Source of the DNA: an uncultured Planctomycetia bacterium
GTDB taxonomy: Bacteria; Omnitrophota; Gorgyraeia; Duberdicusellales; 4484-171
Direction of reading: 5' to 3'
Assembly (NCBI GenBank): GCA_964536865.1
Contig: CAZHYN010000014.1
Coordinates: 1 to 32,000, forward strand
Length of the DNA: 32,000 bases
Made by a program: the position numbers and the translations under genes. Within the stretch, counting starts at the first letter, position 1. Each line of letters starts with the position of its first letter. Of this stretch, positions 1 to 20,014 are shown piece after piece. Under the pieces are notes generated by a model that was not told where the DNA came from, ran no database searches, and worked only from the letters and a program-made list of their open reading frames with translations.

Positions 1-1070
1 ATAACACTTTTATTTTGCAATCTCAATTTAGAATCATAAAAAGAAGGAAAAGTAATCACAACTGGAAGGAATTTTGTTTTTTCTATTTTAAAATTTATAA
101 AATAATTTTTATTTATCTCATAACTAGGAAAAAGCCAAAAATTACATATAGGATGAATATGTTTACTTTTACTTATATTCTCTTTAATTCCTAAATATAG
201 CATACATCCCGACAAAGAAGGCTCCATCCTTCTCATCTCTTCAAGCTCTTTAGTATTTACTTTCAAAAGCTTTCTGAAAGTTAAAAATGCATCGCAATTA
301 GAAATAACTACCTTGCTTTCTATTTTTTTTCTCTCTTCAAGAAGGACTCCTTTAACTTTTCCTCTATCAATTAATATTTTTTTAACTTCATTATTTAATA
401 TTACTTCTCCTCTGAAACTCTTAAACTTTTTCATCAAAATGTTAGGCAATTTCTGTATACCTCCCTTAACAGGATAATATCCAGGATCCAGAATAAATTC
501 ACGAAAAAATGTTATTAATACAATTGCAGGAATTTTTTTAAAATCAAAACAACCCAGTCCATTCAACATTAATCCCTTAAATAAAAATTTCAGCTTTTTA
601 TCTTTAAAAAACATATCTAACATTCTCTCACAATTTATCCCATCAAACTTTTTATACAAGGTTAAAAAATTTTGTTTAAGAAGGATATCAAAGAATCTAT
701 TTAGATTATCCTTCTCTTTAAAAAAAACTTTCCCAAATTCTTCTGCAGTTTTATAGGGATTCGCTCTAAGATAAACAACTCTATCAGGTAATATAATTTT
801 ATCAGTAGGATCAAGTTGAAAAAATTCTATTTCTCTTTTTATATCTAACTCTTTCAAAATTTTCCCTAAAGCTCCTCTTTTTATTCCTCCAAAATAATGC
901 GCTCCTACATCAAACCTATATCCGTCTTTCTCAAAAGATGTGCAATACCCACCTGGTTTATCATTCTTCTCTACAATTAAAACCTTTAAGCCTGCCTTAG
1001 CTAAATAACACCCGCAGACTAATCCTCCAATACCTGCACCAATTATCACTACATCGTATTTGTCTTTCAT
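1..1070 (-). CDS. FAD-dependent oxidoreductase of the phytoene-desaturase/amine-oxidase (CrtI-like) family; N-terminal ~356 codons, 3' end beyond the left window edge
   Basis: Hand translation of the minus strand from ATG 1070..1068: MKDKYDVVIIGAGIGGLVCGCYLAKAGLKVLIVEKNDKPGGYCTSFEKDGYRFDVGAHYFGG ... GYYPVKGGIQKLPNIL. It has a GxGxxG dinucleotide fold and GG motifs typical of CrtI/COG1233-type flavoenzymes. The frame stays open to base 1, so it is absent from the ORF track. The ATG is 1 nt after the nitroreductase stop. Confidence 0.8.
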   Translation of the reverse strand, partial: MKDKYDVVIIGAGIGGLVCGCYLAKAGLKVLIVEKNDKPGGYCTSFEKDGYRFDVGAHYFGGIKRGALGKILKELDIKREIEFFQLDPTDKIILPDRVVYLRANPYKTAEEFGKVFFKEKDNLNRFFDILLKQNFLTLYKKFDGINCERMLDMFFKDKKLKFLFKGLMLNGLGCFDFKKIPAIVLITFFREFILDPGYYPVKGGIQKLPNILMKKFKSFRGEVILNNEVKKILIDRGKVKGVLLEERKKIESKVVISNCDAFLTFRKLLKVNTKELEEMRRMEPSLSGCMLYLGIKENISKSKHIHPICNFWLFPSYEINKNYFINFKIEKTKFLPVVITFPSFYDSKLRLQNKSV

Positions 1071-1071
1071 T

Positions 1072-1668
1072 TTATCTAATATATTTTACTGTCTCTGATA
1101 ACGGCTTCCTTTTGGAGCGTTTTCCTTTTTCTTGAGGATAACCCAAAGTTAAAATTGCTGCTAACTCATTATTTTCATTTAAAAGTTTGCTTATCTCTTT
1201 TCTGCAGAATAGAGGTGTATTAAGCCAACAGGAACCCAATCCTAAACTTTCTGCTACAAGTACCATATTCTGGAGAGCTGCTGAAATTGCAGAAATTTCA
1301 GCAACTTTTGCTAATTTTATGTATGATTCTCTATACCTTTTAGCTAACTGCATAAAAGCTTTTGTATTGTATATTGCAATTAAGATAGGAGCATTTCTAA
1401 TAACATCTGCACTAAAATGAAGTAAAATATTAGCTCCCGTGCCTATTTTCTTTGACTTCTTAATCAATCTATTTGTAATTTCTTTTATCAATTCTTTATT
1501 CTCTATCACTACAAATTTCCAAGGTTGGATACCGTGAATGGATGGGCCCCATCTGCCTGCCTCAATAATTTTTCTTATTATTTTTTCTGGTATAGGTTTA
1601 TCTTTATACTTTCTTATAGCTTTTCTTTTCTTAACTATTTCTAATATAACTTTACTTTCATCTACCAT
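1072..1668 (-). CDS. nitroreductase-family flavoprotein
   Basis: 198-aa ORF. KRKAIRKYKDKPIPEKIIRKIIEAGRWGPSIHGIQPWKFVVI is the typical nitroreductase-fold opening. GAGG Shine-Dalgarno about 8 nt upstream of the ATG. Confidence 0.85.
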   Translation of the reverse strand: MVDESKVILEIVKKRKAIRKYKDKPIPEKIIRKIIEAGRWGPSIHGIQPWKFVVIENKELIKEITNRLIKKSKKIGTGANILLHFSADVIRNAPILIAIYNTKAFMQLAKRYRESYIKLAKVAEISAISAALQNMVLVAESLGLGSCWLNTPLFCRKEISKLLNENNELAAILTLGYPQEKGKRSKRKPLSETVKYIR

Positions 1669-1706
1669 ATCTTCTACCTCAAATTAACCCGCTTTTAGCA
1701 AAAGAT

Positions 1707-2762
1707 TTATCTAAAAGCAGATACTCCTATTTTCTTTATTTCCTCTCCAAAAACAGTATCTCCGCAGCGAAAATCAGCAAGAAAAAAACCCTCTTCCTTA
1801 GCCAAATTACTAACAACTACTACATTTCTTGAGTTAAATTCAGTTATAAAGTCGTCGAGTGAGTTTTGTAATCCTAAAATAACAGCTTCTGCAATACAAG
1901 CTACAATAGCATCTTCAGGAAAAAGGATATCAAATTCTTTATGAGTTAAAGGACCGCGAGTCACCCAGGCTGCCTCTATAGGGAGAATGTCTTTGCGTTC
2001 ATTGTAAATAGTTTTAGCTGACCAAAAGGGAACGATGGCATCAAAGAATATGCTTTTTGGCTGCAAATTTTTTATTATTTCTTCAGATAAAAAAAGATAA
2101 GTGCTTATAACTAACTTGCTTCCTTTTAAGACATCTTTTATAGAGTTAGAAATTGTTAAATTTCTAAAGTTAGAGTGATTAAATTCAGCAAAAGTATCTT
2201 TTTTGCGATTAGATTTATCGAATAACCAGATTTCTCTCACCTTTCCTATCAGAAGCTGGCAACATACCCTGGCTACTGGCGAATCAGCATCAAAAAGAGA
2301 CAGTTTCACCTCTCTTAAATCAATATCTAGTTGAGAACTAATCCTTAACAGATTATCGATTATTGTAGCAGTAAAAAGTTTTCTGCCTGTGATAAAAAAA
2401 ATATCTTCTCTGTTTATTCTCTTTTTTACTGTAGAAACTAATCTCCCTAAGATTCCTGCCAGGCAGATAATCCTTGCTTCTTTTCTTAAGGCAAGTTTTA
2501 CAGATGAGATGGTTTTTTCTATAAGTTTTTCTTCACTTAGAAGAGGAATCTGCTTAAGAAGTAAGGGGGCTATAATGATAGAACCTTGGGTTTTATTTCC
2601 TCTTTTTGATTCTACATTTAAGAAGAGTATTTCTTGAGGGGTAAGATTATCTAAAAAGTTATCTAAAATATCCTTTTGAGAAAAAGTAATTCCTTTGCTA
2701 TTTAATACTTTTTTTAATGTATCTTCTTCTGGGAAATATCCTATCCAGGCAAATTTATACAT
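1707..2762 (-). CDS. acyl-ACP reductase-like (COG5322 / shikimate-DH-like fold) protein with a degenerate nucleotide-binding loop
   Basis: 351-aa ORF. From memory it is collinear with cyanobacterial acyl-ACP reductase: FAWIGYF vs FGLIGHL at the N-terminus, ITGRKLFTA vs TTGNTHTA, VACIAEAVILG vs FACFAEAMLLE (catalytic Cys position kept). GATGDIG is replaced by DADSPVA. No search was run. Confidence 0.5.
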   Translation of the reverse strand: MYKFAWIGYFPEEDTLKKVLNSKGITFSQKDILDNFLDNLTPQEILFLNVESKRGNKTQGSIIIAPLLLKQIPLLSEEKLIEKTISSVKLALRKEARIICLAGILGRLVSTVKKRINREDIFFITGRKLFTATIIDNLLRISSQLDIDLREVKLSLFDADSPVARVCCQLLIGKVREIWLFDKSNRKKDTFAEFNHSNFRNLTISNSIKDVLKGSKLVISTYLFLSEEIIKNLQPKSIFFDAIVPFWSAKTIYNERKDILPIEAAWVTRGPLTHKEFDILFPEDAIVACIAEAVILGLQNSLDDFITEFNSRNVVVVSNLAKEEGFFLADFRCGDTVFGEEIKKIGVSAFR

Positions 2763-2765
2763 ATA

Positions 2766-3455
2766 TTAAGACGCTTTTTTAAAAAACCCTCCTTTAGGTA
2801 AGGGTAAATAAGCCCAGCATTTTTGAGTGTATTCTCTATACTTATCTCCATAAATTTTGATAAGGTCTTTCTCTTCCAAGTAAGTTTTAAGAATCATTAA
2901 AGAAGCAAATATAAATATAGCAAACAAAAATGCATAGAGAGTTCCTGCAATCATAGATACAGAAAGCGCTTCTAAAATTACTCCAAAATAGATAGGATGA
3001 CGCATATATTTATAAGGTCCTTTATCAGTTATTAACTGCCTTGTTAAGATTTTTGTCTGCCAGGATTCCCCTAAAGTCTTTACTCCCCATAGTCTTAAAA
3101 ATAAAGCAATTAAGTAAATAGTTCCTCCATATATAACTAAAAAAGGAGTAAAGGTGCGAGGAACTAAAAAGAACTCAAACATCATAATAAAAGCCATGGT
3201 AGTATAGACTAAAGCTACTGCCTGAAAGGCCCAGTCTTTTTCTAATCGGCTAATATGCTTCTCAAATCTTCCACTGTAGAAAGTTTCAAATATCCTCTCT
3301 ACTGCTACAAATACTACGTATCCTACAAAAAGCCATCCATATTTTACTTGAGGATGAGTTATTTTTAGTAAAATCGCCGTAAGGGGAATCAGAAATTTAA
3401 TCACCATCATCAGTAATTTAAGGAAGCTGGTTTTCTTCTTCTTCTTCTTCTTCAC
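2766..3455 (-). CDS. isoprenylcysteine carboxyl methyltransferase (ICMT)/phospholipid methyltransferase-family membrane protein
   Basis: 229-aa polytopic ORF with GPYKYMRHPIYFGVILEAL and EEKDLIKIYGDKYREY, the ICMT/PEMT-family signature. GTG start 4 nt after AAGGGGG. The N-terminus is M-K7, encoded by an (AAG)6 repeat plus AAA. Confidence 0.8.
   Translation of the reverse strand: MKKKKKKKTSFLKLLMMVIKFLIPLTAILLKITHPQVKYGWLFVGYVVFVAVERIFETFYSGRFEKHISRLEKDWAFQAVALVYTTMAFIMMFEFFLVPRTFTPFLVIYGGTIYLIALFLRLWGVKTLGESWQTKILTRQLITDKGPYKYMRHPIYFGVILEALSVSMIAGTLYAFLFAIFIFASLMILKTYLEEKDLIKIYGDKYREYTQKCWAYLPLPKGGFFKKAS
3435..3452 (-). repeat. (AAG)6 / (CTT)6 trinucleotide repeat immediately after the GTG start of the methyltransferase gene
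   Basis: The plus strand reads cttcttcttcttcttctt at 3435-3452, followed by cac (GTG on the minus strand) at 3453-3455. Confidence 0.9.
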
Positions 3456-3528
3456 TATTCCCCCTTACTTATTTTCTCAAATGATACATTTTCCTACTCC
3501 GGGTAACTACACCTTAGGTAAAAACTCT

Positions 3529-3573
3529 CTCAAATGAGACATTTCAAGTCTGACTTATTTTGTCTCATTTGAG
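3529..3573 (-). terminator. 13-bp inverted repeat (CTCAAATGAGACA / TGTCTCATTTGAG) with a 19-nt loop, just after the KS stop; possible weak terminator or attenuator
   Basis: Arms at 3529-3541 and 3561-3573. On the minus strand the stem is followed by AGAGUUUUUA. The AU-rich stem and large loop make it non-canonical. Confidence 0.35.
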
Positions 3574-3574
3574 G

Positions 3575-4786
3575 TTAATTTGGTTTGCTAAAGACTACGC
3601 AACAATTACTTCCTCCAAAAGCAAATCCGTTATTTAAAACTATATTTAATTTCTTTTTTCTTGCCTTATTAGGAACACAATCTATATCACATTCAGGATC
3701 CGGGGTTTTAAAATTTATTGTGGGAGGAATTATTCCCCTTTCTATCGCTAAACAACAGGCTACCGCTTCAATACTAGAAGCTGCTCCCATGCAATGGCCA
3801 ATCATTGATTTTAAGGAACTAACAGGAACATTTCTGTAATTTTCTCCAAATAGTTCTTTTATCGCTTCAGCCTCTGCTTTATCGTTCTGAACTGTTCCTG
3901 TTCCATGGGCACAGACATAATCTATATCTTGAGGTAAACAGTTGGCATTTCTAATTGCTTTCTCCATTGCTTTTTTTATTCCTTCTTTTTTAGGTATAGT
4001 CATATGATATGCATCAGAAGATAATCCGTAACTTAAAACTTCTACATAGATATTTGTTTTTCTTTTTTCTGCTTCTCCAAGAGGTTCTAAAATCAAAATT
4101 CCTGCCCCTTCTCCTAAAAGCATACCTTTTCTATCCTTATCAAAAGGAGAACACACTCTTGGTGCCATAGCATAAAGCGTCTGAAACCCTTGAAAAGCAC
4201 CTCGGGAAAGTGCTTCTGCTCCTCCTACAATAGCTAAATCCACCTTCCCCTTTCTTATCAAATCTAAACCATATCCAATTGCATAATTACCAGCAGCACA
4301 AGCATTAGGAATAAGAAGGTTATAACCTTTAAGTTGAAGGAAATAACCAATATTCCGAGGAATAGAGGGAGAAAAAGCATTAAGAAGAAGTTTAAGAGTA
4401 ATCTCATCCCATTCCTCCTTTAGCAACATTTCTGAAGAAAAGTCTAATACGCTTGCCTCTGTCATTGTAGTACCTACAATTATTGCTAATCTTTTATTTC
4501 TGCACTCATTTAAATTAAGATGAGCGTCTTCTAAAGCTAATTTAGTAGCAGCAATAGCAAACTGAGAAGCTCTTCCCAAAAACTGAGTCATCTCTTGAGG
4601 AATAAATAAAGTGGGGTCAAAATCTCTTATCTCTCCTGCGTAGTGACGCTTAAATTTAGAGGTATCAAAGAGAGTCACTTTGCTTATTCCTGATTTTCCT
4701 TTTATAAGATTATTCCAGAAATCTTCTTTATTTAAACCAATAGAAGAAATCACCCCTATCCCACTTACTACTACTTTCTTGCCCAT
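3575..4786 (-). CDS. beta-ketoacyl-ACP synthase II-like condensing enzyme (KS-alpha), catalytic triad intact
   Basis: 403-aa ORF with NACAAGN (active-site Cys), CAHGTGT and KSMIGHCMGAAS (both His). FabF/KS-alpha architecture. Confidence 0.9.
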   Translation of the reverse strand: MGKKVVVSGIGVISSIGLNKEDFWNNLIKGKSGISKVTLFDTSKFKRHYAGEIRDFDPTLFIPQEMTQFLGRASQFAIAATKLALEDAHLNLNECRNKRLAIIVGTTMTEASVLDFSSEMLLKEEWDEITLKLLLNAFSPSIPRNIGYFLQLKGYNLLIPNACAAGNYAIGYGLDLIRKGKVDLAIVGGAEALSRGAFQGFQTLYAMAPRVCSPFDKDRKGMLLGEGAGILILEPLGEAEKRKTNIYVEVLSYGLSSDAYHMTIPKKEGIKKAMEKAIRNANCLPQDIDYVCAHGTGTVQNDKAEAEAIKELFGENYRNVPVSSLKSMIGHCMGAASSIEAVACCLAIERGIIPPTINFKTPDPECDIDCVPNKARKKKLNIVLNNGFAFGGSNCCVVFSKPN

Positions 4787-4802
4787 AGAATAAAGGAGTT
4801 AA

Positions 4803-5258
4803 TTATTCTTCTTTTTTAATCTTTACCCCAAAAGATATCCTTGCTTCGACGACTACTTCACCGCTTACCTTTGCTAACGCTTTAACTGAACCTGCTCTAT
4901 CAAGAATCTTCTCGCCATATACTTCTAAAATTAATTGATCCCCTACTTTTACTGGTTTTTTAAATTTTGCTTCTACTTTTCCCAGATAATAGTCAGGATG
5001 TGTGTCTGCAACTTCTGGTTTTAAAACTGCAAAGACAACGATACTTGCTTGCGCCAAAGCCTCAATAATTATTGCTCCCGGCATAACAGGATTTTTAGGA
5101 AAATGGCCCTCAAAGAAGTAATCATTCGCAGTTACATTTTTTAGACAGATGACTTTTCTTTGAATTTCGTCTACTTCCAAGACCTTGTCAATGAAGAGAA
5201 AAGGATATCTTTGTGGTAAAATTTCTTGAATTTTTTTTATATCCCAACTTTCTAACAT
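4803..5258 (-). CDS. fabZ: 3-hydroxyacyl-ACP dehydratase FabZ
   Basis: 151-aa ORF with ILPQRYPFLFIDKV and GHFPKNPVMPGAIIIEALAQ, the hot-dog dehydratase motifs. Confidence 0.9.
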   Translation of the reverse strand: MLESWDIKKIQEILPQRYPFLFIDKVLEVDEIQRKVICLKNVTANDYFFEGHFPKNPVMPGAIIIEALAQASIVVFAVLKPEVADTHPDYYLGKVEAKFKKPVKVGDQLILEVYGEKILDRAGSVKALAKVSGEVVVEARISFGVKIKKEE

Positions 5259-5395
5259 ATTTTTTGCCTCTTTAGCTGTTTCTTTATTAAACGATAAATA
5301 TCTGCAAGAAAACGCATGTTGGGAATCTTTTCTTTAGGAATTTCGGCAATCTCAGAAACTAATTTTTGGTCTCTTCTAAGATTCTTCTTTCCCAT
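5252..5395 (-). CDS. 47-codon small ORF in the acpP position (ACP-like N-terminus, no DSL phosphopantetheine site)
   Basis: Hand translation: MGKKNLRRDQKLVSEIAEIPKEKIPNMRFLADIYRLIKKQLKRQKIC. AAGGAGG lies 3 nt upstream of the ATG. The stop overlaps the fabZ ATG by 7 nt. It is below the ORF-track length cut-off. Confidence 0.3.
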   Translation of the reverse strand: MGKKNLRRDQKLVSEIAEIPKEKIPNMRFLADIYRLIKKQLKRQKIC

Positions 5396-5410
5396 AAACC
5401 TCCTTAAGTT

Positions 5411-6157
5411 TTAAATAGCTAATCCTCCATCTATCTTAATTACTTCTCCAGTGATATAATTTGCTTTCTCTGAACTAACAAAAGCACATAACCATGCTAC
5501 CTCCTGGGGTGTTCCCAATCTCTTTAAAGGAATGCTATTTAAGATATTATTTTTTATATCATCCCTTAAGGAAGCTACCATATCTGTAGCAATATAGCCG
5601 GGACAAATAACATTCACCCTTATATTGTAGGGAGCTACTTCTTTAGCTAAAGCTTTAGAAAAACCAATAATTCCTGCCTTGGATGCGCTATAGTTAGTTT
5701 GCCTGGGAATGCCTACCAATCCACTTACCGAACTTATATTTACTATACACCCTCTTTTTTGTTTAAGAAAGGTAGTAATTGCTGATCTAGTCATATTAAA
5801 AGTACCTATTAGATTCGTTTCTATCACTTGCTTCCAATCCTCAACTGTCATCATAAATAATGCTTTATCTCTAATTATCCCTGCGTTGTTAACAAGGATA
5901 TCTAAAGTCTTAAATTTTTTCAAAGTCTTCTCTACTACTGCTCGACATTGTTCAAAATCTCTTACGTCTGCTTGGATACTTAAACAGTTGCCTCCTATTT
6001 TTTTTATTTCCTGTTTTACCTTATCTGCTTCTTTTTTACTTCTGTGATAGGTGAAAACTATCTTTGTTCCTAATTGAGCAAAAACCAAACAGATAGCTTT
6101 ACCTATTCCTCGAGAACCTCCAGTAACTATTACTACTTTATTTTTAAGATCAATCAT
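5411..6157 (-). CDS. fabG: 3-oxoacyl-ACP reductase (SDR family, FabG-type)
   Basis: 248-aa ORF with TGGSRGIGKA, NNAGI and YSASKAG (Ser-Tyr-Lys SDR signature). The ATG is 1 nt after the upstream stop. Confidence 0.9.
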   Translation of the reverse strand: MIDLKNKVVIVTGGSRGIGKAICLVFAQLGTKIVFTYHRSKKEADKVKQEIKKIGGNCLSIQADVRDFEQCRAVVEKTLKKFKTLDILVNNAGIIRDKALFMMTVEDWKQVIETNLIGTFNMTRSAITTFLKQKRGCIVNISSVSGLVGIPRQTNYSASKAGIIGFSKALAKEVAPYNIRVNVICPGYIATDMVASLRDDIKNNILNSIPLKRLGTPQEVAWLCAFVSSEKANYITGEVIKIDGGLAI

Positions 6158-6158
6158 T

Positions 6159-7400
6159 TTAACCAGCTTCTTTGTATTTCTCTAAAATACAGGCACCGTT
6201 ATACCCCCCAGGGCCAAAAGAAGTAACTAAAGCTATAACTACTTCTTTTTTCTGCGCTTTGTTAGGAACACAGTCCACATCACACTCGGGGTCTTTTTCT
6301 TTATAGTTTATAGTAGGAGGGATTTTTCCACTCAGCATTGCTCCTATACAAGAAGTAATCTGAAAAAGGCTTGCTACAGAAAAACTTTCTCCTAACATTG
6401 ATTTTATAGAGCTTACTGGGATCTTCTTCAGGCGCTTACCAAATATTTTTTTTAAAACTTTTACCTCTATCTTATCTAAATCTTGCGATGAATTAGCACA
6501 ACTGGAGATATAATCAACATCTCTGGTAAGTACTCCTGCGGTATCTAGAGCATCCTCTATAGACTTCTTTAATCCTTCTCCTTGAGGGTGAATCTTGCCC
6601 ATTTTGAATCCATCAAAAAAAGAAGAAACACTTCTTATCTTGGCAAAAATTTTGCTCTTTTTCTCTTCAGCTTTTTTGAATTCTTCTATCTTAAATACGC
6701 AACAGCCCTCTCCTAACAAAGGTCCATTTCTCCTTTTATCAAATGGACAACTCAGAGTAGGGCCATTTATCCCACCTAAGTATCCTAGCTTGTGAAAACC
6801 AAAGAATAAGGAAAAGTCCAAACTTTCTACTCCTCCACATAATACTATTTCTGCCTTAGCAGTAGAAAGAGCATCCCAGGTATAGTTTAATGCTTCAATT
6901 CCTGATGTATATCCTGTACTTACTGTAGTGTTAAATCCTTGAATATTAAATCTAATGGAAACCTGGGATGAAGGAGCGTTTATTACTGTAAGGGGAAAGA
7001 GAGCAGGTGAGGCAAAATCTATTCCTTCTTTTAATACTTCTCTATCAAACTCTACAATTGGCCATAGATGAGAGAAAGTAGTAGCAGTACATACCCCTAT
7101 TTTATCAGTATTAGTATCGTTAATTTCTAATCCATTATCTTCAATCACTTGCTTACTAGCAGAAAGAAGAAAAAGTGTACTTCTGTCTAAATTTCTCAAG
7201 CCTTTAAATCCCAAGTATGCTTTGGGATCAAAATTTTTTATCTGCCCTCCAACCTTTACATAAAATTTTTCTGTATCAAAGATATCAATAGGAGTTATGG
7301 CACTTTTTCCTTCTTCTAAAGACTTCCAAAAATCTTTTTTTCCTATGCCATTGGGCGCTATTACTCCTATTCCTGTTATAGCTAGAGTAAAATTATTCAC
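6159..7400 (-). CDS. ketosynthase-fold protein lacking all three catalytic residues (KS-beta / chain-length-factor-like)
   Basis: 413-aa ORF with a full-length KS fold. It has VSTGYTSG (Tyr where the Cys should be), SCANSSQ (Asn for His) and KSMLGESFSVAS (Glu for His). GTG start with no SD. Confidence 0.8.
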   Translation of the reverse strand: MNNFTLAITGIGVIAPNGIGKKDFWKSLEEGKSAITPIDIFDTEKFYVKVGGQIKNFDPKAYLGFKGLRNLDRSTLFLLSASKQVIEDNGLEINDTNTDKIGVCTATTFSHLWPIVEFDREVLKEGIDFASPALFPLTVINAPSSQVSIRFNIQGFNTTVSTGYTSGIEALNYTWDALSTAKAEIVLCGGVESLDFSLFFGFHKLGYLGGINGPTLSCPFDKRRNGPLLGEGCCVFKIEEFKKAEEKKSKIFAKIRSVSSFFDGFKMGKIHPQGEGLKKSIEDALDTAGVLTRDVDYISSCANSSQDLDKIEVKVLKKIFGKRLKKIPVSSIKSMLGESFSVASLFQITSCIGAMLSGKIPPTINYKEKDPECDVDCVPNKAQKKEVVIALVTSFGPGGYNGACILEKYKEAG

Positions 7401-7408
7401 AAAATTAT

Positions 7409-7417
7409 TTTATATCA
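7409..7417 (-). promoter_or_regulatory. extended -10-like element TGATATAAA, 8 nt upstream of the KS-beta GTG
   Basis: The minus strand reads tttTGATATAAAataattttGTG, with no SD between. In AT-rich DNA this could be a chance match. Confidence 0.35.
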
Positions 7418-7551
7418 AAAAATATCTTATGTAAATAAAATCTTTGAATTTCAGTCAAATAGAAAAAGTGAAAGAGAAATTTTGGAAACGCTTACAAAAA
7501 AAATTCCCTTCACTCTTTAAAAATCTTTCCAAAATATGGTAAATTTTAAAG

Positions 7552-7626
7552 AGGAAATGGGGGCTCTCTTTTAGAGGGCTCAAAGCCACGGGCCCTCTCC
7601 TCACAAGAGGAGAGGGCTTCGTTTTA
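7552..7626 (+). ncRNA. candidate ~75-nt plus-strand small RNA (putative promoter to terminator)
   Basis: Plus strand: TTTAAA (7516-7521), 18-nt spacer, TGgTAAATT (7537-7545), then a GC-rich segment ending in the hairpin at 7592-7617 plus a T-run. There is no plus-strand gene nearby. Confidence 0.3.
7592..7625 (+). terminator. rho-independent terminator-like hairpin oriented for the plus strand
   Basis: GCCCTCTCCTC-ACAA-GAGGAGAGGGC (11-bp GC-rich stem, 7592-7617) followed by TTCGTTTT. In the minus orientation the 3' flank is CCGUGGCUUUG, a poor U-tract. Confidence 0.55.
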
Positions 7627-7656
7627 TATACTCCAAACTGACTCTAAGTCAGACTT

Positions 7657-7686
7657 TCCGCCTAAGGCGGATCCGCCTATGGCGGA
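7657..7686. repeat. two tandem 15-nt palindromic units, TCCGCCTAAGGCGGA and TCCGCCTATGGCGGA
   Basis: Read directly at 7657-7671 and 7672-7686. Each unit is a 6-bp stem with a 3-nt loop. They are GC-rich in an AT-rich genome. Confidence 0.85.
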
Positions 7687-7694
7687 AAAATGCC

Positions 7695-8309
7695 TCATTT
7701 GAGGTGGTTTAAAATGACAGGAAGAAGCTCTTCCTTGGAGTTTATCTTCTCGATATTTCTTTTCTTATCAATAATAAATGCTTTATATCCTAACTTTATA
7801 CTCTCTAAGCTATTAGCTACTACTAAATCGGTGCCGTTTTCTTTTAAACTCCTGAAAGCTTTGTCAATTATTCCCTCCTCCTCTATTTCTAATTTAAACT
7901 GGACCACAAAAGAATTTTTGGCTAATTTTCTAATTGTTTTAATTATCTTTGGCGCAGGAAAAAGTTTTAAAACTAATTCTTTTCTTTCAGAAGGTATTTT
8001 TCCTTTAAAAGGCTTTTTCAATATATAATCACTTACAGCACAAGCATGGATTATTAGTTGATAGCTATTTTTTTTAAGTTCGCCAACTACCTTATTCTTT
8101 AAATCTTGAAAATATTTAAAGGGCATTATCCTTATTCCTTTAGGAAACTTACTTATGCAATGAGGATTGATGATAAGAGTCGTATGCAAACCTCTCTTTT
8201 TAGCCTCCTGAGCTAAGAATAAAGCAGTCTTACCTGTAAAAATATTAGTTAGAATTCTCACTTCATCAATCTTTACCCAGCTAGCACCACCGGTAATAAG
8301 AACTCTCAT
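7695..8309 (-). CDS. coaB: phosphopantothenate-cysteine ligase (stand-alone CoaB domain)
   Basis: 204-aa ORF with MRVLITGGASWVKIDEVRILTNIFTGKTA and HACAVSDY...GKIPS, the pattern of the DNA/pantothenate-metabolism flavoprotein C-terminal (CoaB) domain. No CoaC domain is attached. Confidence 0.7.
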   Translation of the reverse strand: MRVLITGGASWVKIDEVRILTNIFTGKTALFLAQEAKKRGLHTTLIINPHCISKFPKGIRIMPFKYFQDLKNKVVGELKKNSYQLIIHACAVSDYILKKPFKGKIPSERKELVLKLFPAPKIIKTIRKLAKNSFVVQFKLEIEEEGIIDKAFRSLKENGTDLVVANSLESIKLGYKAFIIDKKRNIEKINSKEELLPVILNHLK

Positions 8310-9043
8310 ATCAAATAATCTGTTTTTATATTCTTTAAAGCGTTAAAAATATTTTTCTTAACATAAGGACAACTTTCTCCAGCTTTTTTTATAATAGCTT
8401 TAACTAATTCCCTTCGGGAATCCTTCCCATAAGAGCACCGATAGTTTGTATAGTCTAGGTTTAACCGATTAGCAAAATTTATAAGATCTTTTTTTTCTAC
8501 ATAACACAGAGGTCTTATTATGGTAAGTCTTCCTTCGAAAAGTTCAATCTTTGGCTTCATTGCACTTACTTCTCCAAAAAAAAGTAAGTTCATAAGAATC
8601 GTTTCCACAATATCATCTAAATGGTGGCCTAAGGCAACTTTATTACAATGAAACTCTTGAGCGGTTTGGAATAACACCTTTCTTCTATTCCAAGAACACC
8701 AAAAACAATTAACGTTGGTATCTTTTAACTCCATCTTTTTCACCACAAAGGGAATATTTTCTCTTTCTAAGTAACCCAAGAGTGCCTTTTTATCAATCTT
8801 TATAAAATTCATATCTATAAAACAGGCTAAAATTTGGAAATCTATAGGGATCCTCCTTTTTCTCATTTTAAGTAGTTTTACTAAACTCAAGCTATCACTT
8901 CCTCCGGATACAGCGACTAAGATCTTATCATTCTTCTCAATCATATTGTAGTCTAAAATAGCTTTACCCATTCTTTTATACACATATTTTATAACTCCTT
9001 TTAAAGGTATTTTCTTATCTTTAAATTCCACTTTGTCTATCAT
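8306..9043 (-). CDS. ttcA: TtcA-family PP-loop ATPase (tRNA thiolation enzyme)
   Basis: 245-aa ORF with VAVSGGSDSLSL (PP-loop SGGxDS), CFWCSWNRR (CxxC) and GHHLDDIVETILMNL. 4-nt overlap with coaB. Confidence 0.65.
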   Translation of the reverse strand: MIDKVEFKDKKIPLKGVIKYVYKRMGKAILDYNMIEKNDKILVAVSGGSDSLSLVKLLKMRKRRIPIDFQILACFIDMNFIKIDKKALLGYLERENIPFVVKKMELKDTNVNCFWCSWNRRKVLFQTAQEFHCNKVALGHHLDDIVETILMNLLFFGEVSAMKPKIELFEGRLTIIRPLCYVEKKDLINFANRLNLDYTNYRCSYGKDSRRELVKAIIKKAGESCPYVKKNIFNALKNIKTDYLI

Positions 9044-9822
9044 TTCCTTTTAATTACTATCTTCTGACCTTCTTTAGCTTTGAAGTAATTCCTAGCTGAT
9101 TTCATCTTTAGGGAAATTTCTAATTTAAAAAATCCCCCTTCTATGAAAAAGGGTTTCTTTTTTTCCTGAAGATAGGAGTCACAGAGTCTTGTTATTTTCT
9201 TTTTATTTAAAAAGGCAACAAAATTTCTGTTTTTAGTAAATTTTTCTAAAGTAACTCTATCTATATTAGTAACTAGATTACCGAAAGAATCTATGTAAAT
9301 AATTTCTCCTATTAAAGTATTCTTTCTGATCTTGGCTTGAGGAAGATCTAACTCTTTGATATCCACAATCCTTCTACCTAATTTTTCTAATTTTATACCC
9401 TTGGATAAATAAGCAGCTATGGGAGCAAATACATCACGGCCATGAAAAGTAGAAGAAATAGGATTTAGAAGATATTTTTTATTCATTATCTCCACAACTT
9501 CTCCTCCACCATCGGCTTCTAAACTAGGGAATAATACTCCATTATCGGGACCAATGAAGTAGTAATTTCTTGTTTTTACTGCTAAAGCCTTACGTTTAGA
9601 ACCTACCCCTGGATCCACAACAACTAAAAAAATAGTACCTTTAGGAAAATATGAAAAAGATGAGTAAAGAAGGAAGGCTGCTTTTTTTACTTTATGAGCT
9701 CCTATCTGATGAGTTATATCAACAATGGTAACTTCAGGATTAATTTTTAAGATAACTCCTTTCATTACTCCAATGAAGTTATCCTCCGTGCCAAAATCAG
9801 TAAGAAGAGCGATAATTTTCAT
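9040..9822 (-). CDS. SAM hydroxide adenosyltransferase / SAM hydrolase (DUF62 family)
   Basis: 260-aa ORF. MKIIALLTDFGTEDNFIGVMKGVI and VVDPGVGS are typical of the DUF62 chlorinase/fluorinase-like family. Confidence 0.8.
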   Translation of the reverse strand: MKIIALLTDFGTEDNFIGVMKGVILKINPEVTIVDITHQIGAHKVKKAAFLLYSSFSYFPKGTIFLVVVDPGVGSKRKALAVKTRNYYFIGPDNGVLFPSLEADGGGEVVEIMNKKYLLNPISSTFHGRDVFAPIAAYLSKGIKLEKLGRRIVDIKELDLPQAKIRKNTLIGEIIYIDSFGNLVTNIDRVTLEKFTKNRNFVAFLNKKKITRLCDSYLQEKKKPFFIEGGFFKLEISLKMKSARNYFKAKEGQKIVIKRK

Positions 9823-10858: not shown

Positions 10859-12702
10859 ACTGCTCTTCTTCTTGTAGAAGAAAGAATAAGTAATCTTAAC
10901 TGAGATTCATTTTTAGCCCTTTCTAAATTTCGGTAGAAATTATGTTCTCTCACTATTTGAGCTATAGCCATCAAAGCTCGAAGATGAAAATTACGTTCGT
11001 CTTTAGAACCAGCTAAAACGAAAGCAAATTTTACTACTCCTTTAGGAAAATCTATACCTTGGGAAGCCTTTACGATAATAATCTCAAACTTATTTTCTCC
11101 TTCTACTACTATGTGAGGTATGGCTAATCCCTCTTCAAGCACGGTAGTAGAGATTTGTTCTCTCTTTAAGAGAAGTTCTTTTAAGCAGGGTTTTTCTATC
11201 TTTAACCTTTCCTCTAAAATTTGCGCTACCTTCTCAAAAAGTTCTTCATAAGAAATTCTTTCTTCTATAATCATTATAGGGCAGTCCTCTATAACTTTAT
11301 CAAATCTATCCTTAATTACCTTATCTCTTTTATGAATAATCTCTTTTAACTCCTCTTCCAAAGAAGTATCTATTAAATCTTTAGAAGTAATTCTTTCTAC
11401 TAAATGGATTATTGCTGACTGTCTTTTTACTTTCCTCTTTACAACAAAGTAATAAGTAAGGGCACTAAAGATTAGAAATCCTAAACTTATCAAAATGGCG
11501 ACTGCCCCCATTTCTACAATTAAAAAAATGTAGGAAATAATTGCGAAGATTTGGATACCTGGATAAAAAGGAGATTTAAATGTAGGACGGTAATTTATTA
11601 TTCTGCCTTCTCTCATTATGATTACCGCTACATTTGTAAGAATGAAGAGAATAAGCATTAAAGTAGATGCTAACTTTACCAAATTCTCCAAATCTAAAAA
11701 GATAATCAAAATTAGCATAAAGATACCTGTAGTGATAACTGAAATATGAGGGGTACTATATTTTTTGGAAAGTTTAGAAAAAATGTTTGGAAGTAACTTA
11801 TCTTTTGCCATTGCTAAAGGAATACGTGAGGAAGAAAATAATCCCGCATTGGCAGTAGTTAGAAAAGCTATCAAAGCAGAAAATGACATAATTATCCCCA
11901 AAGGAAGACCAGCTAATTTAATTCCTCCATGAGTTAAAGGAGTCAATGTAGAGAGCAATTCACCTTTGGGTAGGATTCCTACAGTTACATAAACTGCACC
12001 TAAATATACAATCTCTACAGCCAAGAAAGAAAGGATCATACCTAAAGGAATGGTACGATGGGGGTCTTTGGTATCTTCAGCTACAGAAGCAACTTTAGTT
12101 AATCCTCCATAGGAGATAAATACCATCCCCGCCACTGCTAAAATCCCCTTAAATCCTCCCTTTAAAAAGGGAGTATAATAATCGAAATTTACTCTATTCA
12201 TCCCTAAAATAATATAAACTCCCAAAGAAAGAAAAAGAAATAAAACTAAGTACCTCTGTAAATTAGCAATCCCTTTAATACTTATTATGTTAAGAAAAAG
12301 AAAAATTAGGCAAAATATACTAGCAACAATTTTTATCTGAAAGTAAGATATGCCCCCAGTTATGTACTCTAAGAATGCTCCTATTCCTACCAAAGCGAAG
12401 GCGCTCTTTAATCCTATTGATAACCAGTTAGCCAAACCAGCAAATATTCCGAAAAAGTATCCTAAACTGCGTTCAATAAAGAAATACGTTCCTCCTGCCT
12501 TAGGCATAGCAGAGGCTAATTCCGCTTTAGAGAATATAGAAGGAATCATAAGGACTCCTGCAACGAAGTAAGAAAATACTATGGAAGGACCTCCTTTGAA
12601 GTAGGCAATACTAGGAAGGATAAAAAGGCCACTGGAAATCATTGCTCCACTAGCAATACAAAAGATGTCGAACAAATTCAGATTCCTTTTTAACTCCCTC
12701 AT
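10855..12702 (-). CDS. APC-family amino-acid/cation permease fused to a C-terminal PTS EIIA(Ntr)-like domain
   Basis: 615-aa ORF. The N-terminal ~420 aa is polytopic permease-like. The C-terminal ~150 aa carries REQISTTVLEEGLAIPH (EIIA type-2 phospho-His motif). Confidence 0.75.
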   Translation of the reverse strand: MRELKRNLNLFDIFCIASGAMISSGLFILPSIAYFKGGPSIVFSYFVAGVLMIPSIFSKAELASAMPKAGGTYFFIERSLGYFFGIFAGLANWLSIGLKSAFALVGIGAFLEYITGGISYFQIKIVASIFCLIFLFLNIISIKGIANLQRYLVLFLFLSLGVYIILGMNRVNFDYYTPFLKGGFKGILAVAGMVFISYGGLTKVASVAEDTKDPHRTIPLGMILSFLAVEIVYLGAVYVTVGILPKGELLSTLTPLTHGGIKLAGLPLGIIMSFSALIAFLTTANAGLFSSSRIPLAMAKDKLLPNIFSKLSKKYSTPHISVITTGIFMLILIIFLDLENLVKLASTLMLILFILTNVAVIIMREGRIINYRPTFKSPFYPGIQIFAIISYIFLIVEMGAVAILISLGFLIFSALTYYFVVKRKVKRQSAIIHLVERITSKDLIDTSLEEELKEIIHKRDKVIKDRFDKVIEDCPIMIIEERISYEELFEKVAQILEERLKIEKPCLKELLLKREQISTTVLEEGLAIPHIVVEGENKFEIIIVKASQGIDFPKGVVKFAFVLAGSKDERNFHLRALMAIAQIVREHNFYRNLERAKNESQLRLLILSSTRRRAV

Positions 12703-12711
12703 TATGGATAT

Positions 12712-12720
12712 ATTATATCA
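12712..12720 (-). promoter_or_regulatory. extended -10 element TGATATAAT, 9 nt upstream of the permease ATG
   Basis: The minus strand reads ccCTGATATAATatatccataATG, inside the 24-nt gap after the addB-like stop. There is no SD. Confidence 0.45.
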
Positions 12721-12726
12721 GGGAAA

Positions 12727-18656: not shown

Positions 18657-19652
18657 TTACATTTAATTTCTTTAATCTGGTAAGAAAGTTCTCCTATGCC
18701 TAAATTGTGGGCATAGTGAAATTGGTGAGAATACTCTATATGGAGATAAAACTCCTTTATAATATCTTTATCTTCTCGTTTATTCAGAAGATCTACTGTT
18801 GCCTTATCTAAGGCCATAGGACCAAAACTAAAAAAAATACCTAAATCTCCTACGACCTTTTCTTCTCTTTTATTCATACAATCACATTCTTTAGTAAAAA
18901 TAAAGGCGAAATTAAAATACACACACCTTTTATTTTTAATAACTGCGTAACATATTCTACTATCCTTTCTTGAAGAATTTAATAGATCTCAGATCAAACT
19001 ATCTTAACTGCTCCTACTGGACAGAGGCTTATACATTGAGCACACCTAATACATAACTTCCTATCTATAATGTAATCTCCTTGAGAAGTTTTCTTAATAC
19101 ATTGGACAGGGCAATTTTCCTTACATATACCACTCTTGAAGCACGTCCTATTCCAATATTTTTTAAAGTAGCGCTGAATCCTGTAAGAATATGTCCAGTA
19201 GGATGTGAAACAAATATTATGTAATCTAAATCTTTAATTATAGAAGCTATAAAACAGTGAGAAAAATGTTTTTTATTAATGTTTATCTCTATATAATCAT
19301 TACCTTTTAATCCATCCCCAATAATAATCGGAATCCCCAACTTACCAAATTCATGTTGATAAGCAAGGTTAATATGATCTACAGTATTGGTTCTCTGGCT
19401 TCTATATAAAGTAGTAGTATCGGATAGAAATACTTCAGCTCCTATTCTTTTTAGATATTTAATAAGAGGAGAGAGAAGTTTAAGAAGAAGATAAGAGGTA
19501 TTACCCTTTTCGCCAAAGTGAACTTTAATTCCTACAAAATCATTTTTTTTTATAAGTGAAGAGAGATTTGATTCTTCCAAAGTATTAAAAAGAAAATGAG
19601 GGTTCTTTAGCGCATCCTCTAAAGTGAGGGAGAAAAAAAAGACCGAGCTCAT
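18653..19652 (-). pseudogene. decayed DUF362 / 2x[4Fe-4S] ferredoxin-domain gene (COG2768-like) split over three reading frames
   Basis: Frame 1 is the 195-aa ORF 19065-19652 (VGIKVHFGEKGN ... KNIGIGRASR). Frame 2, by hand translation of ~18994-19150, reads NRTCFKSGICKENCPVQCI...CIRCAQCISLCPVGAVKIV*. Frame 3 is the 89-aa ORF 18653-18922 (TKECDCM...GPMALDKATVDLLN...NLGIGELSY). Confidence 0.7.
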
Positions 19653-20005: not shown

Positions 20006-20014
20006 AGGAATTTA

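Follow-up and report, generated by a model that had tools for sequence, protein, structure and literature searches.

An Omnitrophota relative of the putative ladderane cluster of anammox bacteria with neither the radical-SAM enzyme nor an acyl carrier protein of its own

The window analyzed here, a 32,000-nucleotide stretch of an Omnitrophota contig, begins with a run of genes in which an active ketosynthase (KS) and an inactive KS partner accompany a ketoreductase (KR), a dehydratase (DH), and a set of tailoring enzymes. The question raised by this locus is whether the run is a primary fatty acid synthase (FAS), a type II polyketide synthase (PKS), or a pathway of another kind. Our analysis indicates that it is probably the counterpart, in Omnitrophota, of the FAS-derived KS/chain-length-factor cassette of anammox Cluster I, without the B12 radical-SAM enzyme and with its own KR, release/tailoring enzymes, and sensor kinase. 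Its most likely role is the dedicated synthesis of a short or medium unsaturated lipid.

Layout of the nine-gene run

An ORF check found nine tightly packed ORFs at 7400..1, all on the minus strand, at the positions given in a preliminary description of this DNA. The gaps of 1 to 38 nt reported there needed correction, since the successive intergenic distances were 1, 15, -7, 16, 119, 3, 38, and 1 nt, with -7 denoting an overlap. The shared orientation, which was part of that description, was uninformative, because the minus strand holds every credible gene in the whole 32-kb window. Domains were called with Pfam and NCBIfam. The Pfam analysis took in the window ORFs of 80 aa or longer apart from 12727-15567, for which the Pfam family was taken from the source record. 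Neither Pfam on these ORFs nor the source record placed fabH, fabD, fabI, or an intact acyl carrier protein (ACP) gene in the window, and the sole match of an ACP HMM over the window was a 47-codon remnant, in agreement with the absences described previously. Furthermore, no acyltransferase, enoyl reductase (ER), or priming KS/FabH was encoded in the window. PlsY and a CDP-alcohol phosphatidyltransferase are encoded on the same contig.

The best sigma-70-like promoter match (7407..7435, minus strand; TTTACA-17-TAAAAT, 10/12) lies directly upstream of the first gene and is a consensus match alone, promoter-like matches being no commoner in the region than in shuffled sequences. The 119 nt that separate the core cassette from the tailoring genes (3456..3574, minus strand) contain the hairpin noted previously, which has a 13-bp stem and a trailing U-run (-28.8 kcal/mol, z = -3.1). 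At the junction between the KS gene and the downstream ICMT-family methyltransferase gene in the related loci L003, L066, and L067, toxin-antitoxin, IS200-like, or other small genes were inserted. The hairpin and the insertions are compatible with the two halves of the cluster being separate transcription units.

Core enzymes and their anammox counterparts

The first gene (6159..7400, minus strand) encodes a 413-aa protein with the N- and C-terminal ketoacyl-synt domains of Pfam, in which Tyr164, Cys301, and Glu338 occupy the Cys/His/His triad positions, so that the protein is indeed a catalytically dead KS partner, as had been described. Its best PDB match was 9s5h_C (310 bits), the sequence of which is 90% identical to Brocadia proteins, and it was 40% identical to Brocadia amxFabFmut, with which it formed a clade in 300 of 300 bootstraps. 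The partner had a dN/dS of 0.067 against L003, and more than 120 90%-identity clusters of it were found in Omnitrophota at 53% identity or more. The partner, described previously as KS-beta/CLF-like, was not orthologous to PKS chain-length factors (CLFs): the actinorhodin CLF scored 118 bits, compared with about 213 for FabFs, and Iga12 did not appear in the 60 best matches that the PDB search listed.

The second KS (3575..4786, minus strand; 403 aa) has a Pfam ketosynthase match and the Cys-His-His triad expected of the active-type enzyme that it had been taken to be. Its PDB matches were headed by 9s5h_B (445 bits), followed by Iga11 (330) and Bacillus subtilis FabF (317), and its identity to Brocadia amxFabF2 was 50%. 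The fabF equivalog score of 411 was under the cut-off of 493.75, and the cut-off of FabF subfamily NF005589 was barely reached (387.9 versus 387). In a tree that included two canonical FabFs (300 bootstraps), the active KS grouped with amxFabF2 (225/300) and Iga11 joined next (206/300). Both the KS and its partner therefore fell with anammox Cluster I proteins and apart from the two canonical FabFs, and the grouping of the KS with amxFabF2 and Iga11 upheld the earlier view that an active KS, a triad-less partner, and discrete KR and DH mark a dedicated system rather than a housekeeping fab operon.

The 248-aa KR (5411..6157, minus strand) is a FabG-type 3-ketoacyl-ACP reductase (TIGR01830, 308.8 bits; cut-off, 297.75) with a dN/dS of 0.072, and its gene adjoins the inactive-partner gene in about 49 related loci. 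The 151-aa 3-hydroxyacyl-ACP dehydratase (4803..5258, minus strand), which has the FabZ/FabA fold, was 44% identical to Brocadia amxFabZ, and its best PDB matches were the five entries 7qv0, 8ayb, 8ayi, 8ayc, and 8ayd, all amxFabZ (PMC10139942). Ile73 of this DH corresponds to amxFabZ Ile69, where canonical FabZ has Gly, and the hydrophobic position 115 is matched by Leu119. The tunnel Ile was kept in 30 of 35 DH relatives, and none had Gly. In public gene calls, the DH carries ApeI/ApeP-like Pfam matches.

Cluster I (KustE3603-3608), a putative ladderane cluster, comprises amxACP, amxFabZ, amxFabF2, amxFabFmut, PDH, and B12-rSAM; the Brocadia locus L064 was used for comparison. The preliminary description had set the present cluster apart from ladderane-candidate clusters, a distinction that did not hold: the best solved-structure matches of KS, partner, and DH were Cluster I proteins, and the CrtI-like flavoenzyme was a full-length homolog of PDH (35% identity over 482 aa of the Brocadia protein, E = 3e-92). 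The ACPs of related loci were 45 to 49% identical to amxACP, and that of L009 also had an anammox protein as its best PDB match, so that all but one of the six Cluster I gene families recur in the Omnitrophota cassette. In the partners of both clusters, the second triad His is replaced by Glu; in contrast, the Cys position is aromatic (Tyr/Phe) here and small aliphatic or Thr in the anammox partners. The cluster has no B12 radical-SAM enzyme, and no orthologue was found in the window or in 61 related loci, with a single generic match (22% identity) in L005. Unlike Cluster I, the cluster has its own FabG-type KR, has lost its ACP, and is ordered partner-KR-ACP-DH-KS rather than ACP-FabZ-FabF2-FabFmut-PDH-rSAM; further additions are AAR-like or NAD_binding_4 reductases, methyltransferases, a nitroreductase, and a histidine kinase of the 7TM type. 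The hosts are Omnitrophota or Nitrospirota here and anammox bacteria for Cluster I. The anammox KS pair is a heterodimer that decarboxylates malonyl-ACP and prefers C6-C8 chains (bioRxiv 10.64898/2026.05.19.726425), and amxFabZ prefers short chains (PMC10139942). Homology shows a predicted pairing of the amxFabF2-type active KS with the amxFabFmut-type triad-less partner, and a predicted cycle that the FabG-type KR and the Ile-narrowed amxFabZ-type DH complete up to the enoyl stage.

The deleted carrier protein and the tailoring genes

The 47-codon ORF between KR and DH (5252..5395, minus strand), the ACP identity of which was missed in the preliminary description, aligns to both ends of the 85- to 90-aa ACPs that occupy the same slot in relatives and matches the ACP HMM at E = 7e-6. 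As judged from this alignment, the ORF is what is left of the cluster's ACP gene, which lost about 37 residues, including the DSM phosphopantetheine site with its serine, through an in-frame internal deletion. An identical deletion was present in the independent MAG L003, where the start codon is also gone, and the deletion evidently predates the split of the two sampled lineages. An intact ACP was kept in 42 of 45 related loci, and a second lineage, L011, has lost its ACP completely and retains an intact cassette. Against L003, the remnant had a dN/dS of 0.69, compared with 0.07 to 0.26 for the five overlapping enzyme genes and 0.06 to 0.16 for flanking housekeeping genes; the enzymes flanking the remnant are under strong purifying selection. 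Destruction of the ACP in the presence of such selection suggests that the pathway still works, with the carrier supplied in trans.

Downstream of the KS gene lies an ICMT/PEMT-family membrane methyltransferase gene (2766..3455, minus strand; Pfam ICMT 1e-13, PEMT 1e-11) with an ambiguous start, either GTG at 3455 (229 aa) or the ATG of the public gene call (214 aa), so that the KS-ICMT gap is 119 or about 164 nt. The enzyme had a dN/dS of 0.26 and was 81% identical to the L066 copy. Its confinement to one small sub-lineage (the window, L002, L003, L066, and L067) was not recognized previously.

The 351-aa protein encoded next (1707..2762, minus strand) had no Pfam match; its family profile matched the PigE N-terminal domain (4ppm, E = 4e-38) and cyanobacterial acyl-ACP reductase (AAR; 6jzq, E = 1e-33), in support of the earlier assignment to the acyl-ACP reductase family. 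The catalytic Cys of the AAR family (6JZQ/6JZU), set in an ACxAEA motif, is kept as Cys289 within ACIAEA, aligned to FACFAEA of AAR. The Gly-rich NADPH motif is absent, however: the GxxGxxG segment, GATGDIGS in AAR and GYPGSI in PigE, which keeps the motif, reads FDADSPVA in the window protein and in its relatives P0122 and P0123, without any of the three glycines, so that "reductive release" is perhaps not the right description in this lineage. Lineages with a surviving ACP have this Gly-less variant too, conserved at 57 to 78% identity, and L067 has an additional NAD_binding_4 reductase that the window lacks. Unlike the cyanobacterial system, the cluster has no partner aldehyde-deformylating oxygenase.

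Two flavoenzyme genes complete the run: a 198-aa nitroreductase-family FMN protein (1072..1668, minus strand; Pfam Nitroreductase, 5e-31), whose gene comes after that of the AAR-like protein in L001, L007, L021, L029, L066, and L067, and a CrtI-family protein (1..1070, minus strand; Pfam NAD_binding_8 and Amino_oxidase), of which the window holds the N-terminal 356 of 475 aa, the full gene lying at 11693-13120 of L001 on the source contig. In the prodigiosin MAP branch, the PigE N-terminal thioester reductase domain converts a C8 2-enoyl thioester from fatty acid synthesis to 2-octenal, and PigB, an amine-oxidase-fold flavoenzyme, acts at a later step. The cluster parallels this branch in joining a short-chain enoyl-ACP, an AAR-like enzyme, and a CrtI-like flavoenzyme, but it has no aminotransferase domain, PigD, or pyrrole chemistry.

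Past the window edge, the stop of the CrtI-like gene and the start of a gene for a HisKA_7TM/GAF histidine kinase overlap by 8 nt; this conserved neighbor was missed in the preliminary description. Across Omnitrophota and Nitrospirota, where the cassette was found, this 7TM kinase was the most constant neighbor (23 of 28 related loci). The CrtI-like gene was present in 17 of the 28, a response regulator whose output domain is of the HD(-GYP-type) kind in 13, a thioester reductase of either type in 12, and the nitroreductase in 5. The rarity of the nitroreductase and the restriction of ICMT to one sub-lineage indicate that the tailoring scheme is not general; the set was conserved in the sister lineages L066 (52 to 81% identity) and L067. 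A membrane sensor kinase adjoining lipid synthesis genes also characterizes the Xanthomonas Rpf/DSF locus, and the combination of sensor kinase and HD-type regulator resembles RpfC/RpfG. The likeness is one of architecture only: the cluster has no RpfF-type crotonase, its kinase has a HisKA_7TM/GAF input, and no response regulator adjoins the kinase on this contig.

Competing readings and the proposed pathway

A rearranged primary FAS, in which KS/partner, KR, ACP, and DH make the bulk membrane acyl chains and a flavoenzyme serves as ER, is unlikely. The wide conservation of the inactive partner in Omnitrophota, the KR score above the FabG equivalog cut-off, the marginal NF005589 score of the KS, the PlsY and CDP-alcohol phosphatidyltransferase genes on the contig, and the position of the cassette amid housekeeping genes such as those for CoaB, isocitrate dehydrogenase, and lipoamide dehydrogenase in several loci would all fit it. 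However, KS and partner group with Cluster I and not with the two canonical FabFs in the tree, anammox bacteria have a separate canonical FabF (bioRxiv 10.64898/2026.05.19.726425), and the DH has the tunnel-blocking Ile that limits amxFabZ to short chains. The cassette is also without FabD, FabH, and ER, and the Omnitrophota locus L049 has plsX-fabH-fabD 3 kb from it. Association with a sensor kinase in most related loci is unusual for a core FAS, and loss of the ACP with conservation of the enzymes requires another ACP, most simply a housekeeping one. We consider a highly reducing type II PKS of the aryl-polyene/ishigamide kind, with a conjugated polyene pigment or amide as product, similarly improbable. 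The ishigamide PKS (Iga10-16; KS/CLF structure 6KXD-F) has the same KS/inactive-partner logic and discrete KR and DH without ER, Iga11 is the next-best match of the active KS and its sister in the tree, and the ApeI/ApeP-like matches of the DH point the same way. The partner, in contrast, is apparently unrelated to Iga12, which is missing from its 60 best listed matches, and is nearer to FabF than to the actinorhodin CLF, the DH is of the amxFabZ type with an Ile-narrowed tunnel that argues for short substrates, and the cluster lacks amide-forming and other ishigamide tailoring genes. Hallmark aryl-polyene accessory genes were likewise absent, with no ammonia lyase, thioesterase, LolA-like/MMPL export, or acyl/glycosyltransferase gene in the window and 10 kb downstream.

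Decay of the whole cluster after ACP loss is very unlikely. Internal deletion of the ACP, the missing start codon of the L003 remnant, the lost NADPH motif, and mobile and toxin-antitoxin genes at cluster junctions in relatives would be expected of a relic, but the eight other window genes are all intact, the dN/dS of the five genes overlapping L003 is in or near the range of flanking housekeeping genes, L011 keeps its cassette without any ACP, and the Gly-less AAR-like variant is conserved where the ACP persists. Least probable of all, to the point of being nearly discounted, is synthesis of ladderanes as proposed for Cluster I. Five shared gene families and "ladderane" clusters so labelled by antiSMASH in Omnitrophota MAGs (PMC9902471) speak for it, whereas the B12 radical-SAM enzyme, the proposed cyclobutane-ring former, has no orthologue here or in the 61 related loci, and no ladderane producers are known outside the anammox Planctomycetota.

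For the dedicated lipid pathway, the KS/partner heterodimer would be primed by malonyl-ACP decarboxylation and would elongate short chains, with FabD and, in this lineage, another ACP contributed by the cell. The cassette product would be a short- to medium-chain (about C6-C10) unsaturated acyl thioester, a chain length and unsaturation extrapolated from anammox enzymes at 40 to 50% identity. The AAR/PigE-like Cys enzyme would take the chain off its carrier and, given the lost NADPH motif, may act by releasing the chain instead of reducing it. Modification by the CrtI-like and nitroreductase flavoenzymes would follow, and the ICMT-family enzyme may O-methylate the chain, yielding a specialized lipid, the level of which would be tied to the 7TM histidine kinase with which the cluster would be co-transcribed. 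In gene content and homology, the cluster is closely related to the putative ladderane cluster of anammox bacteria, without the radical-SAM enzyme and its own ACP, and it shows that the distribution of this lipid-building module extends beyond ladderane producers.

Gene content of the cluster and its surroundings

The left 7.4 kb of the window (positions 7400 to 1, minus strand) contained nine ORFs, and the order and domains proposed for them in the preliminary description were confirmed with Pfam and NCBIfam. The encoded proteins are the following, all on the minus strand: an inactive KS homolog of 413 aa, with Tyr164, Cys301, and Glu338 at the triad positions (Cys301 replacing the first triad His in alignments to 9s5h_C and FabF); a FabG-type ketoreductase (KR) that passes the TIGR01830 cutoff; the product of a 47-codon ORF lying between the KR and dehydratase genes; a FabZ/FabA-fold dehydratase (DH); a second KS of 403 aa that retains the Cys-His-His triad; an ICMT/PEMT-family membrane methyltransferase; a protein of 351 aa that matched no Pfam family; a nitroreductase-family protein; and a CrtI-family flavoprotein that continues past the window edge. 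The distances between consecutive genes (1, 15, -7, 16, 119, 3, 38, and 1 nt) bore out the compactness of the run; its co-direction, which had also been put forward, carries little weight because all credible genes of the 32-kb window are on the minus strand.

The 119-nt junction between the active KS and ICMT genes contains a hairpin (z = -3.1). The same junction is the site of toxin-antitoxin, IS200-like, or other small inserted genes in the Omnitrophota MAG QNCE01 (L003) and in two sister lineages (L066 and L067), and the core and the tailoring block may thus be separate transcription units. The genes found at cluster junctions were MNT/HEPN or Polbeta/HepT toxin-antitoxin genes, small ORFs (one with DUF4258), and IS200-like genes (L003:13883-16316; L066:8195-8990 and 11726-12854; L067:4560-5266); unlike these three loci, the window has no inserted genes at its KS-ICMT junction. 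An Rfam search of the window returned zero matches.

An identical copy of the 351-aa protein is encoded on an ENA metagenome contig of 66 kb, examined as the 21-kb locus L001, on which the full CrtI-like gene has 475 codons. Just past window position 1, a gene for a 728-aa histidine kinase (HisKA_7TM, GAF, and HATPase_c; L001:13113-15299) overlaps the stop of the CrtI-like gene by 8 nt at its start and is followed further downstream by an IS200-like gene and unrelated genes. The ACP, acyltransferase, and exporter genes that were to be looked for by a leftward extension were absent downstream on L001. The nearest named relative is MAG QNCE01, which comes from a separate study and whose inactive KS is 94% identical. 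fab genes were also sought on a contig returned from a Logan look-up, which held nothing relevant, with aromatic amino-acid genes instead.

Several neighboring features were recorded. A stand-alone CoaB-like DFP gene (window 7695-8309) immediately precedes the cassette in each of six loci (L001, L003, L016, L019, L024, and L066), and a CoaC-like flavoprotein is encoded about 6.6 kb downstream in L001 (L001:19740-20288), so that split phosphopantetheine-pathway genes flank the ACP-dependent cluster. Between the CoaB-like gene and the cluster, positions 7590-7685 hold two GC-rich palindromes in tandem, CCGCCTAAGGCGG and CCGCCTATGGCGG (chance expectation, 0.03; background GC, 32%), and a GC-rich hairpin with a 13-bp stem, elements that occur nowhere else in the window; the same contig also carries a gene for an IS200-like Y1 transposase (L001:15623-16504). 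Window 29574-30723 encodes a CDP-alcohol phosphatidyltransferase and the acyl-phosphate:glycerol-3-phosphate acyltransferase PlsY, so acyl-phosphate is the source from which the organism makes phospholipids. In addition, the window encodes a SAM hydroxide adenosyltransferase (SAM_HAT; 9040-9822), a DUF362, PilZ, and small radical-SAM trio (19065-20824), and a 125-aa protein whose match to the Cpn10 (GroES) profile is limited to its first half (20856-21233; residues 5-51 against positions 2-46 of 93).

Relationship to the anammox Cluster I

Queries run against all PDB sequences consistently pointed to anammox proteins. The active KS matched 9s5h_B best (445 bits), ahead of Iga11 (330 bits) and Bacillus subtilis FabF (317 bits), and the inactive KS matched 9s5h_C best (310 bits). 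The best matches of the dehydratase were the amxFabZ entries 7QV0, 8AYB, 8AYC, 8AYI, and 8AYD, and those of the ACP of a related locus (L009) were 7qv0_D, 7auf, and 9s5i_E. Entries 7QV0 and 8AY* are amxFabZ and the amxFabZ-amxACP complex (PMC10139942). The approximately 90% identity of 9s5h_C to Brocadia proteins, together with the description in the preprint (bioRxiv 10.64898/2026.05.19.726425), fits the assignment of 9s5h as the amxFabF2/amxFabFmut heterodimer.

Direct comparison with a Brocadia Cluster I locus (L064; gene order ACP-FabZ-FabF2-FabFmut-PDH-B12-rSAM) gave identities of 50% for the KS to amxFabF2, 40% for the inactive KS to amxFabFmut, 44% for the DH to amxFabZ, 45 to 49% for the ACPs of relatives to amxACP, and 35% for the full-length CrtI-like protein to PDH (482 aa; E = 3e-92), the last two enzymes also having parallel subthreshold crtI_fam scores. 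In a neighbor-joining tree (300 bootstraps), the inactive partners and amxFabFmut formed one clade (300/300), the active KSs and amxFabF2 formed another (225/300) with Iga11 as the next branch (206/300), and the two canonical FabFs included fell outside both clades. A third KS clade of about 430 to 445 aa, with a Cys-His-His triad and 300/300 bootstraps, comprised proteins that follow the cassette in Nitrospirota.

The dehydratase retained two of three amxFabZ features, including the key Ile: Ile73 aligns with amxFabZ Ile69, which is Gly in canonical FabZ and limits amxFabZ to short substrates (PMC10139942), and Leu119 fits the hydrophobic residue 115, whereas at position 96 the Ser/Thr of the amxFabZ type is replaced by the Lys of canonical FabZ. 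Of 35 related dehydratases, 30 have Ile at the tunnel position and none has Gly.

Thus, five of the six Cluster I gene families were found in Omnitrophota and Nitrospirota, and the shared features include the triad-less partner and, in the dehydratase, the diagnostic Ile; the sole family missing is that of the B12 radical-SAM enzyme. A counterpart of this enzyme was absent from the window and L001, and no orthologue was detected among 61 related loci. One locus (L005:6224-8597) encodes a B12-binding radical-SAM protein (465 aa) that is 22% identical to the anammox enzyme, along with a class I methyltransferase, just upstream of its HTH, AAR-like, and cassette genes.

These comparisons bear on what the cluster is. 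That it might be the organism's primary FAS finds some support in the KS, which just reaches the FabF subfamily model NF005589, but the TIGR03150 scores of the KS (411 bits) and the partner (299 bits) lie below the FabF equivalog cutoff of 493.75, and fabH, fabD, acpP, and fabI/K are absent from the window and the 21-kb L001. Taken with the phylogeny, the Ile in the DH tunnel, the kinase linkage, the gene context of locus L049, and the lack of AT and ER genes, these data make a primary FAS unlikely, and the proposal of a dedicated KS/CLF-type system distinct from housekeeping FAS was upheld.

A highly reducing type II PKS of the aryl-polyene or ishigamide type is a further reading, and the KS is related to Iga11. 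Of the gene set of such a PKS (discrete KR and DH, no ER, and a dedicated ACP), the KR and DH are present and an ER is not encoded, and the ACP is deleted in the window but present in relatives. The partner, however, is not a PKS CLF, since it scored 118 bits with actinorhodin CLF against about 213 bits with FabFs, and Iga12 was not among the 60 best PDB matches listed for it; Pfam searches of the window and L001 also found none of the ammonia lyase, thioesterase, LolA-like/MMPL export, and acyl/glycosyltransferase genes of an aryl-polyene cluster. Ladderane synthesis is the reading that the shared core would suggest, and the missing rSAM enzyme argues against it. The preliminary description had set the genes apart from ladderane-candidate clusters, which was wrong for the core and the CrtI-like gene, as the Cluster I best matches in the PDB and the identities to the Brocadia locus indicate. 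Decay of the cluster, finally, is contradicted by the dN/dS values given below.

Loss of the ACP and distribution of the cassette

The 47-codon ORF aligned to the first ~24 and last ~29 residues of the 85- to 90-aa ACPs that occupy the same slot in relatives and lacked the stretch VPQEQLKEDARFVEDLGIDSMMALEIVANIEKKYKV, which harbors the phosphopantetheine serine. An ACP HMM matched the ORF (E = 7e-6) and detected no other ACP in the window, L001, L003, or L065. Judged by these alignments, the ORF is an ACP with an internal deletion. L003, which was assembled independently, shares this deletion, which is therefore not an assembly artifact; the L003 remnant additionally lacks an ATG. An intact ACP was found in 42 of the 45 loci covering the slot, and the ACPs of relatives matched amxACP structures best. 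In one further Omnitrophota locus (L011:12057-12156; ELA036), the ACP is wholly gone, leaving a 98-nt gap between KR and DH; this loss looks independent, because the related locus L017 has an ACP.

Between the window and L003, dN/dS was 0.067 for the inactive partner, 0.072 for the KR, 0.16 for the DH, 0.18 for the KS, and 0.26 for the ICMT enzyme, compared with 0.06 to 0.16 for five upstream housekeeping genes and 0.69 for the ACP remnant (42 codons), implying that the enzymes stayed functional after the ACP was lost. Since all of them use ACP-bound substrates, the genome must encode another ACP, from which we infer a separate ACP-dependent system, most simply a housekeeping FAS. Direct evidence that the two systems can coexist came from L049, in which plsX-fabH-fabD lies 3 kb from the cassette; this was the only locus with PlsX, FabH, and FabD homologs near the cassette. 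Adaptation of the DH to a housekeeping ACP after ACP loss was considered as an explanation for its Lys100 and was rejected, as lineages whose ACP is intact also carry Lys or Arg at this position, and Leu is found in L066. Repeated ACP loss without loss of the enzymes amounts to a natural experiment in carrier-protein specificity.

When one genome per species was scanned, the inactive partner turned up in 61 loci, whose ORFs were then called and clustered. The loci are mostly from Omnitrophota and Nitrospirota/Thermodesulfovibrionia, with single records from Endomicrobiales and Desantisbacteria. The conserved core was partner-KR-ACP-DH-KS, with KR-partner-ACP-DH-KS as the Nitrospirota version. 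In 28 loci, the sequence extended 5 kb or more beyond the KS on its downstream side; of these, a HisKA_7TM kinase was found in 23, a CrtI-like gene in 17, a response regulator with an HD domain in 13, a thioester reductase (NAD_binding_4/TIGR01746 type or AAR-like) in 12, a nitroreductase in 5, a GMC oxidoreductase in 4, and ICMT in 1. The HisKA_7TM kinase that follows the cassette was often joined by a second kinase and the HD-domain response regulator. Methyltransferases of unrelated folds recurred: the ICMT type in the window, L003, L066, and L067, and class I SAM methyltransferases in L009, L044, and L005, with a weak match in L025. The ICMT, AAR-like, and nitroreductase order of the window was kept exactly in L066, where CrtI and kinase genes come next, and in L067, whose last gene is partial; the tailoring proteins were 52 to 81% identical to those of L066. 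The tailoring set is therefore real and conserved in the sublineage. Across loci, only the CrtI-like gene and the kinase were general.

Several variants of the cassette were observed. An Omnitrophota locus (L017:10001-20059) carries two tandem cassettes, with two inactive partners, two DHs, two ACPs, three KSs, and an extra 433-aa KS, and the inactive partner of L026:10001-11188 has the active-site Cys but neither His (Cys/Cys/Glu). When 50%-identity representatives were ranked against the inactive partner, the best included proteins of about 820 aa with two KS-like halves (P0244, P0248, P0250, and others), which may be fused KS/partner enzymes. One 50%-identity representative of the partner family came from Poribacteria.

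Putative product and significance

A word-based search with the 351-aa protein found only three relatives, but a profile that included homologs from related loci matched the PigE N-terminal domain (E = 4e-38) and cyanobacterial acyl-ACP reductase (AAR; E = 1e-33). The catalytic Cys is kept (ACIAEA, compared with FACFAEA in AAR), whereas the Gly-rich NAD(P)H motif is gone (FDADSPVA, compared with GAAGSIGS in other homologs and GATGDIGS in AAR), as it is in the close relatives P0122 and P0123. On the strength of these motifs, the protein is an AAR/PigE-N family member that fails one defining feature, and it may transfer or hydrolyze the acyl chain rather than reduce it. In L067, an extra NAD_binding_4 reductase adjoins the AAR-like gene. 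An AlphaFold2 model of the 351-aa protein, built from a four-sequence alignment, had a mean pLDDT of only 56 and was rejected as a basis for fold searching.

By homology to characterized proteins, the cassette supplies an active KS with a triad-less partner, a KR, and a short-chain dehydratase. The amxFabF2/amxFabFmut heterodimer decarboxylates malonyl-ACP and prefers C6-C8 chains (bioRxiv 10.64898/2026.05.19.726425), and by analogy with the anammox enzymes, the KS and its partner would form a heterodimer that primes by the same decarboxylation and shares this preference. As the cassette has no ER, acyltransferase, or priming KS, it presumably depends on the cell's FabD and ACP. Its output would be a short or medium unsaturated acyl thioester, which the AAR-like enzyme would off-load; the two flavoenzymes would modify the chain, the ICMT enzyme would O-methylate it in this sublineage, and the translationally coupled kinase would tie the product to signaling or envelope control.

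A more speculative reading, to which we assign a low probability, is that the cassette, the 7TM/GAF histidine kinase, and, in many relatives, the HD-domain response regulator together make up a lipid signaling system that is complete in itself, in which a short unsaturated chain made by KS/partner-KR-DH is released, methyl-esterified in this lineage into a diffusible or membrane-borne signal, and sensed by the adjacent kinase. If so, Omnitrophota and Nitrospirota would have a system resembling DSF/Rpf or 3-OH-PAME/Phc, built from the very module whose recruitment in anammox bacteria was for ladderanes.

Cluster I is, according to PMC10139942, conserved among ladderane producers and exclusive to them, and amxFabF2/amxFabFmut has been called the first chain-length factor in a fatty-acid pathway (bioRxiv 10.64898/2026.05.19.726425). 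Related clusters in Deltaproteobacteria were noted by Rattray et al., and clusters labeled "ladderane" by antiSMASH have been listed, without analysis, in Omnitrophota and other non-anammox MAGs (PMC9902471 and PMC11968836). A literature search found no account of an rSAM-less, kinase-linked Omnitrophota/Nitrospirota cassette or of ACP loss within it; likewise, none was found on Omnitrophica FabF, and the Omnitrophota survey paper is silent on fatty-acid synthesis.

The finding contradicts the stated exclusivity of Cluster I. With five of six families shared and the B12 radical-SAM enzyme alone missing, that enzyme is singled out as the anammox-specific step. The product of these natural rSAM-less versions would reveal what the shared module makes and bears on three competing ladderane schemes, and the cassette gives ladderane biosynthesis a point of comparison. 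The close association of the cassette with a sensor kinase, moreover, suggests signaling or envelope-lipid control, a function not considered before for this family.
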